From Piedraia hortae CBS 480.64 (taxonomy: Eukaryota), in the NCBI GenBank assembly GCA_010093745.1, contig MU006005.1, positions 67,934 through 123,664 of the forward strand: a DNA stretch of 55,731 nucleotides, written 5' to 3'. Of the stretch, positions 46,930-54,335 are shown in pieces. Numbering within the stretch: position 1 is the first letter of the stretch; every line of letters starts with the position of its first letter. Made by a program: the position numbers and the translations under genes. The notes beneath the pieces were generated by a model. The model saw only the letters and a program-made list of their open reading frames with translations. It was not told the origin of the DNA and did no database searches.

Positions 46930-47208
46930 GTCTGCGGATGAGGAACTCTTTATTAGACCTCAATCGTTGCTGGGCAGCGATTCCTCGATGTAGAATATAC
47001 ACCAGATATACGAGTGATGTCGGAAGATTCACTCTGAAGGGTTTATGCCTTTTTTGTCCATCACATGCTTCCACATGTTTTGATCTGAAACTCCACGAGG
47101 TTGAGATCGTCTTCACATGTTCCATATTTCAGAAAACCTCATTCCCTCTTCGGGGTTAGCGTGATGGCCCCGCACTAACTCACCCCATATTGAACCTCAC
47201 AGCCAAAG

Positions 47209-49578
47209 ATGCAGCGTGTCAAGAAAGTCGACTACGACGAAGACGAGCTCTACGACGATTTAGTCGAGGAATATACCGCCGAGGACTGCCAACAGTTTGC
47301 GATATTGACTCCAGTCGTCAAAGCAGAGCTGGAAGAGGCCGGACTCCAAAGTACTGACAAGGAAGTCGAGGAGGCTCTTTGGCACTATTACTGGGACGTC
47401 CAGAAGAGTGTCAACTATCTGAAACACGTAAAGCGGCCCAAATCTATCCCCAAGCCGGAAACGAAGCAATCAAAGTCGACGCCAAAGAGTCGCTTTGACG
47501 AAGGTGCAAAGAGGAACGCAAAGACTGAAGGTAAGTTTGTAAATTTTTCATAATCTGCCCTTCGCGGGCGGCTCTTTCTCACGGCCAAGAAGAAGTGGGT
47601 CTATTCCTCCACTCCTTTTTGGACGTGTGCTGAGCGGTTTGCGTAGTGCCTTCTCGTGTGAAAAGACAAACATGTTGGGTGGTTCATCCAAGCTTTCCAA
47701 ATTGGCAGAGGAGAGGCGCAAAAAGGCAGAATCAGCTCAAAGCGCACAAGCACCCGGTCTGAATTCGCTGGATCGTCTCATCAAGGCCCAAGGCGGTGAT
47801 GAGGCTAAACAACAACCGTCCTCCATCCGTCTGCGTAAGATTCCGCTTCGGCCAAAACATCGAACTGCTGCTCCTGAAACTCTCCCGTATGATTCAGAGA
47901 AGCCCGAAGAGAAGCCTCAGGATACGTCAATGCTGAGAGCATCACCCACTGCTTTTGGGCGTTTTATCTCGCTTCCAGTGAAAGAGCACAAAGCCCTTCC
48001 ACAGATCACACTGAAAGATGTGACTGGATGTGAAGTGGATATCAAACCGTTTTTGGATCCATCACCAGACACTATTGTCTTGCAAGCGCAGAAGAAGCGC
48101 AAAGGGATTACAAAGAGTTGATGGGTTATTCGGCTAACTTGGATCTGCAGGGCTAGGCAAGTCTACACCCAATGCAAATGCATTGGCAAGGGAAACGGAG
48201 AAGTTGAGCGTTGAGGATAAACCGGCAAAGAAGGCGCTCAATGTGCTCAAGCTTTGGCAGGAGGTGAAGCTGCCGTCTGTGGCTTTTGTGGTCATTGGTC
48301 ATGTAGATCATGGTAAAAGTACGCTAATGGGCCGATTGCTACTGGACTCGGGGGCCGTTCAGCAGCGTGATGTTGACAAGTTTGTCGTCTCAACCTACCC
48401 ATGGAAGAAGGCTAACATGTTACAGATATCAAAAGCAAGCAGGCGAGATGGGCAAGTCGTCGTTTGCCCTGGCTTGGGTAATGGACACGGATCCAGAAGA
48501 GCGGGAGCGTGGTGTTACTGTTGGTATCGCACAGCATCATATCTCAACCGAAAAAGCCGCATTTACAATCTTGGACGCTCCAGGCCACCGCGATTTTGTG
48601 CCCAACATGATTGCAGGGGTCTCCATGGCGGATTTCGCCGTCATTGTAGTAGATGTCAGTCAGTTGGAAAGCGGCATGAAGGGTCAGACGAGAGAACATA
48701 TAGTGCTTGCGAAAGCCGCGGGTTTGACCAGGGTCATTGTCGCCATCAACAAGCTCGATTCGATCAAGCCAGAGGCTTGGGACTTTGAGGTATATAAAGC
48801 CGTGCGGGATGAGGTTGCGACGTTCTTGAGAAAGACTGGCTTTGAGGATGAGCATGTCCAATTCACCGCCTGCAGTGGGCTCAAGGGAGAGAATGTGGTC
48901 CGTAAAGGGTCGGCCGCGTGGTTATCAGAGGACTATCCCACACTTTTACAAGCACTCGAAAAGGCAGCCACATCGGAGACCACGCCGGAGCGGATTGAAA
49001 GCTCCCTGGAGATGCAAGTCGCCGATGTCTATCGCGGGGGAATTGCGAATTTTCTATCAATTTCAGGTCGCATTGCATCTGGTCACGTACAAGTTGGGGA
49101 TACGATCATGATCCAACCCAGCGGGGAGAGTGCTCTGATCAAGGGGATAGAGGTCAACGACGAGACTCAAGAATGGTCGGCAGCGGGCCAGATCCCCATC
49201 CTACATCTAACAGATATGGATGCAAATCATGTGCAGCCAGGGGATATGGTATACTGTCCCTCCCAACTGATACCGCTAGTCAAGGAATTCGAAGCGACAG
49301 TCAATACTTTACAGAGCCTACTGCCGCAACGACTGGACCTTCACCTGGGAAGACTACACGTTTCTGCTTTTGTCAAGCAGTTGACTGCGTTGCTAAACGA
49401 AAAGGGGGAAGTGATCAAGAACAAACCGCGCGTGGTGCAGCCTGAACAACGGGCGCGAGTAGTTATATCTCTTGCCGAGGGGATACCGGTAGGTAAGTCG
49501 CTTGCCGTCATCCTACGAAGTGAAGGATCTACTGTTGCCTACGGACATGTACATAGCGCCGCATTATCATCTACATAA
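47209..49578 (+). CDS. HBS1: HBS1 ribosome-rescue translational GTPase, ~567 aa isoform
   Basis: Exons 47209-47530, 48151-48379, 48426-49578 join in frame; N-domain ALWHYYWDVQKSVNYL; GHVDHGKS, GKSSFALAWVMD, ERERGVTV, DAPGHRDF, NKLD, CSGLKGEN. Confidence 0.9.
47647..48121 (+). CDS. SKI7: Ski7-like alternative exon inside HBS1 intron 1, ending in its own stop
   Basis: Open frame with MLGGSSKLSKLAEERRKK, LRASPTAFGRFI and PFLDPSPDTIVLQAQ, resembling conserved Ski7 motifs; candidate acceptor GCTGAG..TAG at 47646; TGA at 48119-48121. Confidence 0.72.
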
Positions 49579-50917
49579 TTAGCTTCGTAATCTTGCCAAT
49601 GGCAATTGTTTGGCCCTGATCTCGTAACGTAAAGCGGCCAAGCTGCGGATAATCTTCGAAGCGTTCGACGCAGACGGCACCAGCCGCACCAGTCACCTTT
49701 ATCCTGGCGATGATGTTCTGGTTTTGCTTCGCAAACCTCGGGGCTTTTTTTGATTTTCGATTCGTCTTTGGCTCCAAGTAATGGAGAAGCTCCTCAAATA
49801 TGACTTCTTCCGTAGACGCGTGCACGTGCAATACGCACGGAAACCCGATCGAAAGGACCGATCTGAGCTCCAGAAGACGGATCTGGGCCTCGAACGCGCT
49901 TACACAGTGCACCGGTCGTTCTGGGGCACAGAGCACGAAGCCTGGGAGAATGTCCTCTTCCTCAGCACCTTTGATGCGGGCTCGCGCCTGCTCCCCGGCC
50001 ATCACTTGCTCTACCTCGTCCTCCGTCTCGCCGTACAAGGCAGAAATGTCAATGTTGGCGCGGCTCGGCATCATGAGATACTTTCCGCTCTTCTTCAACA
50101 CGCCTGCCTCGATCTTTCCTTCGATCATGGTGCCCTGTTCGCGGTATTTGGCTGATATGGGCATCATCAGCGGTGCGTCAATGTTGCGTTGGGGCGTTGG
50201 CATATTATCGAGGTACTCTAACAGTGATGGGGACTCATTCCACGGAGCGAGATCTTTGGGGACGCGTTTGTTAATCCCAATGGTCTGCTGTGCAGCAATT
50301 GGCATAAAATAGAGGTCTGTCTTGGGATTGTAGCCAATATTGCGGAGGAAGGTCGAGACTTTGCTGATACATTCGTTGTACCGCTCCTCAGACCAGTCGA
50401 CTGTGGGATCATCCATCTTGTTGACGACAACGACGAGCTTGTTGACGCCTTGCGTCTTTGCCAGCATTGCGTGTTCGCGCGTCTGACCGCCCTTCTCAAA
50501 GCCTGTCTCGTACTCCCCTTTGCGGGCAGAAATGACCAGCACGCCGACATCTGCTTGTGATGCACTCGACATCATATTCGGCACATAGTTCTTGTGGCCA
50601 GGGGCGTCGAGGATGGAGTAGCGTCGCGTGTCAGTTTCGAAGAAGCCGCGACCGACCTCGACCGTCTTACCCTTTGCTCGCTCCTCCTTGGTCTCGTCAA
50701 GAGCCCAGGAAAGAAACCACGACTCTCGGCCCATCTCTTTGGACTCTCTTTTGTATTTGTCCAGTGTGCGATCGTCGATTCTGCCTGTGGCGTACAGGAT
50801 GCTGCCGCCCAGCGTGCTCTTGCCAGCGTCAACATGGCCAAGAAAGATGATGTTGACGTGTTCTTTGCCGAAGACTTCGACCTCGGCGGCAGCGGCGTTG
50901 GCGTCGGCCTGAGACAT
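49571..50917 (-). CDS. SUP35: Peptide chain release factor 3 (eRF3), C-terminal GTPase region only, 448 aa
   Basis: KEHVNIIFLGHVDAGKST, RESWFLSWALD, KGKTVEVG, DAPGH, GEYETGFEKGGQTREH, NKMDDPTV and the eRF3 GRFTLRD motif; intronless. Confidence 0.93.
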   Translation of the reverse strand: MSQADANAAAAEVEVFGKEHVNIIFLGHVDAGKSTLGGSILYATGRIDDRTLDKYKRESKEMGRESWFLSWALDETKEERAKGKTVEVGRGFFETDTRRYSILDAPGHKNYVPNMMSSASQADVGVLVISARKGEYETGFEKGGQTREHAMLAKTQGVNKLVVVVNKMDDPTVDWSEERYNECISKVSTFLRNIGYNPKTDLYFMPIAAQQTIGINKRVPKDLAPWNESPSLLEYLDNMPTPQRNIDAPLMMPISAKYREQGTMIEGKIEAGVLKKSGKYLMMPSRANIDISALYGETEDEVEQVMAGEQARARIKGAEEEDILPGFVLCAPERPVHCVSAFEAQIRLLELRSVLSIGFPCVLHVHASTEEVIFEELLHYLEPKTNRKSKKAPRFAKQNQNIIARIKVTGAAGAVCVERFEDYPQLGRFTLRDQGQTIAIGKITKLIM

Positions 50918-53391: not shown

Positions 53392-54335
53392 TTACCAGCC
53401 TTTTGCATGATATTCTTGCAGGCCGGCATCAAAGTACTCATTTGTGAATTGCCGGTTGGCGCCAAGAGTCACAGGCTCCGGCAGTTGTCGCAACTTTGTC
53501 ATATCCTGTGTCGTGTGTCGCCGCTTCATTTTCATAAGATTGCTCGTGCTTCTATACTGTCGTTCCCACAAGAGATTTTTGCGCAGCGACTCCGTTAGTT
53601 CCGTCGAAAGCATATTACGACGAGTAGTGCGCGGGGAAAGCGCAAGGGAGGCGTTGGACGGGGCCTTTGCGATAGTAATCGGGCGCGGCCCTGTTTCCGT
53701 CTCAGAAACTGTAGGCAGCGAAGGGTCCATGGGTGGTGATGCCCGTCTCCGTCCATTCAGCGCCGGCTGTGATGCAGCGTTCCGCAAAGCTGCCGCGCGA
53801 TCGCTCTCGTGCATCATTGAGGTGAGTAGTGAGCGGTGTGATGTGAGGTTTGGCTTCGAATCCACGCGCTGGAAGAGGCCTTTGTCGCTAGGAGATGGTG
53901 AGGCGCTGGGGCCATCTGAATCCTCCCAATCTGAAGAGTCAGTTATAGAATCTCGATCAGAGGGCAATGCCACGCACCCGATGAATCATCCTCATCTTCA
54001 ATGGCAGAGCCAGAGTCATCTTCATCTTCTGAAAAAACGGGCCGATCCTCTGGTATATCGGCCTGCGGACGCATTTTCGCAGCCCGTATACTCTCAGATA
54101 GGTTGCTCTGAAACGATTTCATGTGGCGATCCAACGAGCCGTCGTCCTCGCCCGATGAAGAGCCAAGAGTGAACATGGTTGGCTTCTTGCCATCGCCCGG
54201 CTGCTGACCAGGAGGGTTGTTGCGCGTTGAGGTCGAGAGCTCGGGCTCTGGCTCGGGCGCCAGGCGGGTCTGTGAACGATACGACGAGGGTGGTCCACCG
54301 GGAACGAAGCCACGGACTATCGAATGCGAGGGCAT
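53392..54335 (-). CDS. DUF3295-like conserved fungal protein, ~298 aa
   Basis: SHSIVRGF, MFTLGSSSGEDD, SDWEDS across 47-nt intron 53977-53931, LFQRVDSKPNLTSHRSLLT, SPRTTRRNMLSTELTESLRKNLLWERQ, YHAKGW*. Start uncertain. Confidence 0.78.

Follow-up and report, generated by a model that had tools for sequence, protein, structure and literature searches.

SKI7 and HBS1 are the textbook case of ancient alternative splicing, in which one gene gives rise to two proteins, one acting in ribosome rescue and the other in the recruitment of the exosome to mRNAs. Here we describe the SKI7/HBS1 gene of Piedraia hortae CBS 480.64, located in a window of 55,731 nucleotides (nt) that corresponds to positions 67,934–123,664 of the forward strand of contig MU006005.1 (assembly GCA_010093745.1); all positions given below are those of the window. 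The locus is a single SKI7/HBS1 gene of a filamentous ascomycete, a Dothideomycete, and belongs to this known system. It is opened on the plus strand by the ATG at 47209 (AUG1, 47209–47211, in the context CCAAAGATGC). Exon 1 (47209–47530), common to both mRNA forms discussed below, encodes the HBS1 N-terminal domain (Pfam HBS1_N, E = 9e-20) and is matched by an RNA contig at 47214–47530. It is followed by an intron of 620 nt (47531–48150), at the 3′ end of which a motif scan finds CTAAC at 48134 and the acceptor CAG at 48148–48150. Exon 2 (48151–48379), also present in an RNA contig, encodes a linker and the start of the GTPase domain with its GHVDHGKST motif (Pfam GTP_EFTU, E = 5.4e-9). Beyond the 46-nt intron 2 (48380–48425, GTTTGT...CAG), exon 3 (48426–49578, plus strand) carries the remaining part of the HBS1 GTPase and domains II/III (GTP_EFTU, E = 7e-36) and ends with the stop codon TAA at 49576–49578. 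Use of the distal acceptor yields an HBS1 GTPase of 568 amino acids (aa), and the top matches of the GTPase exons among solved structures are mammalian HBS1L (5lzw_jj, 1.7e-61) and Schizosaccharomyces pombe Hbs1 (3mca_A).

The 620-nt intron, spliced out of the HBS1 mRNA, contains a Ski7-like open reading frame (ORF) of 149 codons plus TGA (47672–48121, stop codon at 48119–48121, plus strand), recognized from the sequence itself, by profile search and through its relatives. The intronic reading frame is open from 47543 to 48121, and its first ATG is the one at 47672 (AUG2, in the context ACAAACATGT). Upstream of the ORF lies a proximal acceptor at 47646. Its use with the GTAAGT donor at 47531 removes a proximal intron of only 116 nt (47531–47646, GTAAGT...TAG) and retains, in the long (Ski7) mRNA alone, an alternative exon segment of 504 nt (47647–48150). 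No canonical CTRAY branch motif was found upstream of the proximal acceptor by the motif scan. A second potential donor, GTTTGT (47535–47540), overlaps the canonical one with a shift of 4 nt. The initial annotation of this locus, which was derived from the sequence alone, had listed the 620-nt intron, both donors, both acceptors, an out-of-frame stop at 47760 and a potential product of 266 aa, and all of these coordinates and frame statements proved correct on the sequence. Its remark that other introns measure 43–71 nt could be checked for two of them, of 46 nt and 47 nt (53931–53977), and both fit.

RNA data for the gene came from one public run, X1, in the form of Logan contigs, which contain 86% of the gene's sampled words. 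The run is labelled 'RNA?' and we have taken it as a transcriptome because its contigs show a poly(A) end at 47063 and skips bounded by GT and AG. Logan contigs lose rare variants and do not reveal RNA ends; those of X1 leave 47064–47213 and 47531–47644 uncovered (by depth arithmetic), the exon 1 contig beginning at 47214. Three joints are carried by these contigs: 47530/48151, in a single contig, with a skip of 620 nt; 47530/47647, also in a single contig, with a skip of 116 nt; and 48379/48426, with a skip of 46 nt. The last of these bears out the suggestion that intron 2 uses a GTTTGT donor preceded by AA. The contig that carries joint 47530/47647 is 562 nt long and continues from that joint without a gap to 48178 (47645–48178 in the window), running past the stop at 48121 and on across the distal acceptor. 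Thus, in this run and at the level of contigs, the proximal and distal 3′ splice sites are both used in RNA, and the Ski7-like coding exon that the initial annotation had placed inside the long HBS1 intron is indeed included through the proximal acceptor. The depths of the two junction contigs, 255.6 and 875, are not taken as a ranking of the isoforms.

The long form seen in X1 uses the canonical GTAAGT donor, which puts the Ski7 ORF out of frame with exon 1: by sequence reading, exon 1 ends in phase 1, and the RNA-supported acceptor requires phase 2. Across joint 47530/47647, the frame of AUG1 ends at the TGA at 47760–47762, and its product would be 145 aa long, consisting of HBS1_N and an out-of-frame tail of 38 aa. 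The Ski7 frame, followed upstream, meets a stop at 47526–47528, just 5′ of the joint; it is therefore barred from upstream extension, and AUG 47672 is the first start available to it. There is no ATG in any frame across the 344 nt that separate AUG1 from AUG2 in the long mRNA, so that AUG 47672 is the second AUG of this message. The ORFs of AUG1 and AUG2 overlap by 90 nt, which excludes reinitiation at AUG2. A programmed −1 frameshift within 47647–47672 was likewise rejected, as no slippery heptamer could be read in that segment. The acceptor at 47708 is in frame with the canonical donor, yet it bisects an invariant motif, and the corresponding joint 47530/47709, which the initial annotation had offered as an alternative, is absent from the X1 contig joints, where a minor share would go unseen. 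Two potential donors that could link the Ski7 ORF to exon 2 were also discarded: the phase of GTCTTG at 48077 does not fit, and both this site and GTTGAT at 48117 (with a 34-nt intron, as in the public model P0005) are contradicted by the gap-free contig.

According to the initial annotation, the frame would be kept by the donor shifted by 4 nt. The arithmetic of that proposal is sound, as joint 47534/47647 would be in frame and give 266 aa, and GTTTGT does work as a donor in the same organism, at intron 2 (joint 48379/48426). It can be extended into a reading in which a minor splice from 47535 to the proximal acceptor produces an HBS1_N–Ski7 fusion that is the functional Ski7, with the 47530/47647 form being unproductive and possibly cleared by nonsense-mediated decay (NMD). 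In X1, however, the only joint to the proximal acceptor is the one from the canonical donor. No joint with a skip of 112 nt (47534/47647) occurs among the contig joints, from which a minor share would escape, and the contig with joint 47530/47647 is unbranched over 47647–48178, so that the shifted form must be rare in this run. The X1 contigs rule out a major role of the donor at 47535 and are compatible with a minor one.

The assignment of the intronic ORF to Ski7 was examined by sequence and profile searches. Among 1.84 billion representative proteins, the ORF has 22 relatives at E ≤ 1e-3, and a word-indexed search returned 58 relatives of similar length. The alignments contain the invariant blocks LLGGSSKLAKLAEERRKKA, SLDRL, DLRASPTAFGRTLS and DPFxGPSPDDxV. 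The window's ORF keeps every residue that is invariant in the 30-sequence alignment; its own motifs are MLGGSSKLSKLAEERRKKA (47672–47728), SLDRL (47765–47779), LRASPTAFGRFIS (47933–47971) and KPFLDPSPDTIVLQAQ (48044–48091). When the profile of the family was compared with all solved structures, only four matches were obtained at E ≤ 10, and three of these were Saccharomyces cerevisiae Ski7 (8qca_E, the best one with E = 0.0084, 8qcf_L and 5g06_P), in agreement with the Ski7-like motifs that had been noticed in the sequence. The matches fall into two collinear stretches, in which the first motif corresponds to residues 3–65 of Ski7 (in the full-length chain) and the PSPDD block to residues 201–221. 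The features typical of Ski7 thus occur in the expected order, an N-terminal Ski7 motif followed by a Patch-4-like PSPDD motif, the score of the match being marginal. A C-terminal GTPase-like domain is absent from the Ski7 ORF, whose stop precedes the GTPase exons. Judged from this pattern of conservation, the ORF in the intron is genuinely coding, under constraint and of the Ski7 type.

A scan of metagenome contigs yielded 36 loci with a related ORF. In all 36, those of the HBS1_N and GTPase exons that are on the contig flank the ORF in the window's order, HBS1_N before it and the GTPase exons after it, and 22 of the loci hold all three parts (HBS1_N, the Ski7 ORF and the GTPase). A complete ORF is present in 29 distinct loci, and in each of them the stop lies 17–19 residues past the Ser of SPD; in all 19 of these that were read through to exon 2, a CTRAC branch motif comes after the stop, and then the distal acceptor. 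The claim that the Ski7 exon ends ahead of the GTPase exons is therefore upheld by the conserved stop as well as by the gap-free contig, in which no linking intron is seen. The named relatives place the gene among the Capnodiales/Mycosphaerellales; the closest relative is only ~55% identical in the GTPase. The conservation of the stop in that clade implies that the Ski7 isoform there lacks the GTPase domain, as does vertebrate HBS1LV3. In annotated proteins from other classes (Botrytis, Penicillium, Exophiala and Aureobasidium), PSPDD runs in frame into the GTPase. In a more distant group of relatives (L023, L024 and L035, and in part L020 and L022), the frame stays open all the way from exon 1 across the proximal intron to the Ski7 ORF, and plain intron retention could there encode the fusion.

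The arrangement of acceptors in the relatives bears directly on the proposed role of the shifted donor. Four loci (L001, L012, L015 and L019) have an acceptor, CAG or TAG, that keeps the frame when joined to the canonical donor, and in the first three of these a CTRAC branch motif is readable just upstream of it. A further 12 distinct relatives (L003, L004, L005, L007, L009, L010, L011, L013, L014, L016, L017 and L030) have a CTGAC branch motif followed by the tandem acceptors AAG/ACTGTAG/, 7 nt apart (e.g. L004, 1763–1773). The AAG of this pair, but not the stronger-looking TAG, keeps the frame set by the canonical donor; going by the sequence, the tandem AAG/TAG may be a conserved productive/unproductive acceptor pair of the Ski7 isoform. 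The same 12 relatives share the window's frame offset at the TAG acceptor, and the hexamer that begins with the +4 GT occurs among them in seven forms, of which four (GTTTCA, GTTTAG, GTTTTG and GTTAGA) have no G at position 5. Any GTRAGT donor automatically has a GT four bases into the intron; a conserved role of the shifted donor finds no backing in these loci, where the hexamer is often not donor-like and an in-frame AAG acceptor is available 7 nt upstream instead. On the other side, all five '+4-compatible' AG sites of the window, including the acceptor that is used, are in frame with the donor at 47535, and public models of the relatives join HBS1_N to the Ski7 part in frame. The functional fusion explains neither the Leu-to-Met replacement nor the ATG-free exon 1 described below, and we consider it unlikely. 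Neither a coupling of donor choice to acceptor choice nor the more elaborate idea of a feedback switch built on the shifted donor and NMD is supported.

Several features distinguish the window from its relatives. The first residue of the motif LLGGSSKL is Met in the window, whereas all 29 relatives compared have Leu there. In the stretch before the first motif, the WFxDxPW segment and a near-invariant Pro have been lost. Exon 1 has no ATG besides AUG1, compared with 1–12 extra ATGs in 26 distinct relatives; synonymous resampling of exon 1 with the window's codon usage gave a mean of 4.6 ATGs and P(0) = 0.002. Finally, six AG sites lie between the donor and the first motif, and splicing from the canonical donor to any of them would miss the Ski7 frame.

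Another reading is that the Ski7 exon is a decaying or purely regulatory remnant in this lineage, with the long mRNA giving only the 145-aa product or being degraded and use of the proximal site, at most, lowering the output of HBS1. The observed joint places a stop 38 codons past exon 1, a long way before the final exon junction, the WFxDxPW segment is gone, and the proximal acceptor has no canonical branch motif. Yet the frame of 149 codons is still open, the Met is placed exactly at the start of the motif, and all residues invariant across the 30 relatives have been kept together with the position of the stop despite the ~55% identity of the GTPase, which would be unexpected for a dead exon. 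Such a remnant is, in our opinion, quite improbable.

We favour instead the view, to which we assign a probability of roughly 0.55, that the long mRNA encodes a minimal Ski7 without HBS1_N and without the GTPase, translated from AUG 47672. The internal ATG with its 149-aa product, which the initial annotation had mentioned only as a fallback, is now the best-supported route to Ski7. Splicing from the GTAAGT donor to the distal site (48150) gives the HBS1 ribosome-rescue GTPase, and splicing from the same donor to the proximal site (47646) adds the 504 nt with the Ski7-like ORF. This ORF closes at the conserved stop, just ahead of the distal branch point, so that its product has no GTPase domain. 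The long mRNA thus carries two overlapping ORFs; in the proposed scheme, the 145-aa product would be made from AUG1 and the 149-aa Ski7-type protein from AUG2. Ribosomes could reach AUG2 by leakage past AUG1 through the ATG-free exon 1 or, alternatively, on mRNAs whose 5′ end is at or just past AUG1. The 149-aa product would extend from the motif where yeast Ski7 begins to just after the PSPDD exosome-binding motif and may bridge the Ski2–Ski3–Ski8 complex and the exosome. The complete scheme, in which the choice of splice site toggles between an HBS1 message and a dual-coding message, whose exon 1 has been cleared of ATGs to let ribosomes bypass AUG1 and produce the 149-aa Ski7, is put forward tentatively and at somewhat less than even odds.

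A number of points weigh against translation of a minimal Ski7 from AUG 47672, which, like the route of ribosomes to this AUG and the binding to the Ski complex and the exosome, is an inference. AUG1 has an A at −3, a good context that should limit leakage. The RNA evidence comes from one run in the form of contigs, and a minor 47534/47647 form could exist and be the functional one. The public models P0007, P0012, P0016 and P0021 of relatives join HBS1_N in frame to the Ski7 part, which suggests that HBS1_N is normally part of the Ski7 protein in this group. The test for depletion of ATGs was picked after the data had been seen, and two relatives carry just a single additional ATG. Taken as a whole-sequence E-value (0.0084), the similarity to yeast Ski7 is marginal, and the closest relative, with only ~55% identity in the GTPase, is too distant to date the uncoupling of the frames.

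Comparison with the described SKI7/HBS1 systems shows which elements of this arrangement have precedents. Alternative 3′ splice sites of SKI7/HBS1 have been demonstrated by reverse transcription-polymerase chain reaction in Lachancea kluyveri, Aspergillus nidulans and Saitoella (Marshall et al., 2013; PMC3597508). Like the genes of A. nidulans and L. kluyveri, the one in the window is a single gene with an alternatively spliced intron after the HBS1_N exon, in which the proximal 3′ site adds Ski7-specific sequence and the distal one leads to HBS1, both joints being present in RNA here. In L. kluyveri, the long form is a single frame that runs through the GTPase (96 kDa), whereas the Ski7 of the window stops before it; unlike the case in L. 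kluyveri and in human HBS1LV3, the Ski7 segment of the window is out of frame with the shared exon 1. Truncated forms without the GTPase have been proposed for basidiomycetes and metazoans (PMC3597508), and human HBS1LV3 is such a form (PMC6143672; PMC7924785). The proposed product resembles human HBS1L isoform 3 and vertebrate Ski7 in lacking the entire GTPase (Kalisiak et al., PMC5389692; Brunkard and Baker, 2018, PMC6143672) and in having a Patch-4-like PSPDD motif for exosome binding. However, HBS1LV3 has the shared N-terminus in frame and a terminal exon of its own, whereas in the window the mRNA continues into the GTPase exons. The Ski7 proteins of yeast, L. kluyveri and plants have a C-terminal GTPase-like domain, which those of the window and of vertebrates do not. 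With S. cerevisiae Ski7 (8qca, 8qcf and 5g06), a protein of 747 aa that has a degenerate GTPase domain and is encoded by its own intron-less gene, the likeness is limited to short motifs (E = 0.0084), and the start proposed for the window lies within about five residues of the yeast start.

A precedent for the proposed start codon is found in Candida albicans, in which an alternative start of the mRNA leads to a Ski7 whose initial Met stands at the beginning of motif S1 (Marshall et al., 2013; PMC3597508). As in C. albicans SKI7, the Met in the window is at the equivalent place, at the first Ski7 motif, and the HBS1 N-terminal domain is left out. A separate Ski7 mRNA, independent of exon 1, might begin inside the intron of the window as well. 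Contigs are blind to RNA starts, and a start within 47647–47671 would be compatible with the data. On the other hand, the sole contig that enters the exon from upstream arrives from exon 1 through joint 47530/47647, and a separate mRNA would leave the ATG-free exon 1 unexplained. We therefore regard an intronic mRNA start as very unlikely. The two systems also differ in that transcription of the C. albicans form starts separately and its GTPase domain is retained, whereas the exon in the window is spliced from exon 1 and its predicted product has none.

These results affect the interpretation of the available gene models. The public model P0005, a protein of 744 aa that is 100% identical to the window's sequence, uses the shifted donor in a 55-nt intron (47535–47589) and includes the 34-nt intron (48117–48150) that removes the stop of the Ski7 ORF; both choices are contradicted by the RNA contig that carries joint 47530/47647. 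In the models P0005, P0016, P0083, P0087, P0090 and P0098, the Ski7 exon is tied to the GTPase exons by introns that differ from species to species. Such a species-specific bypass of the stop in a stop-bearing clade looks like an artefact of gene prediction, and the annotated proteins of 730–780 aa are probably chimeras of two isoforms. The introns by which public models lead from the Ski7 exon to the GTPase, both in this gene and in its relatives, are unsupported.

The neighbourhood of the gene is compact. On the minus strand, the adjacent gene (49571–50914) encodes the GTPase core of eRF3 without the N-terminal extension, with yeast eRF3 (4crn_P, 5.8e-180) as the top match among solved structures. 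Its stop codon (49571–49573) and that of HBS1 (49576–49578) are arranged so that the convergent coding regions overlap by 8 nt, and a single RNA contig spans both genes. HBS1 and eRF3, two paralogous GTPases of translation termination and rescue, are thus arranged tail to tail, and their 3′ ends overlap fully. On the other side, the upstream gene has its poly(A) site, represented by a loose poly(A) end at 47063, only 145 nt from AUG1, which implies that the promoter and leader are very compact and the leader short.

In the literature that was searched, which did not extend to a 2018 survey by Marshall, no Ski7 segment was found that is frame-uncoupled from the shared exon and has its own start on a spliced mRNA. 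That survey, by Marshall et al. in PNAS, is said to recognize four kinds of Ski7-like protein and may already describe fungal forms without the GTPase, which would bear on the novelty of the arrangement. Ski7 is known to arise through in-frame alternative exons, from an alternative transcription start or by gene duplication. If translation from AUG 47672 is real, the combination of splicing with a second start codon would be a further route, one in which Ski7 has been separated from HBS1 without gene duplication, by alternative splicing together with alternative initiation. What is of interest here is that a lineage-specific rearrangement points to a stand-alone minimal Ski7. Such a protein would be approximately the smallest natural Ski7 and would help to map the parts required for linking the Ski complex to the exosome.

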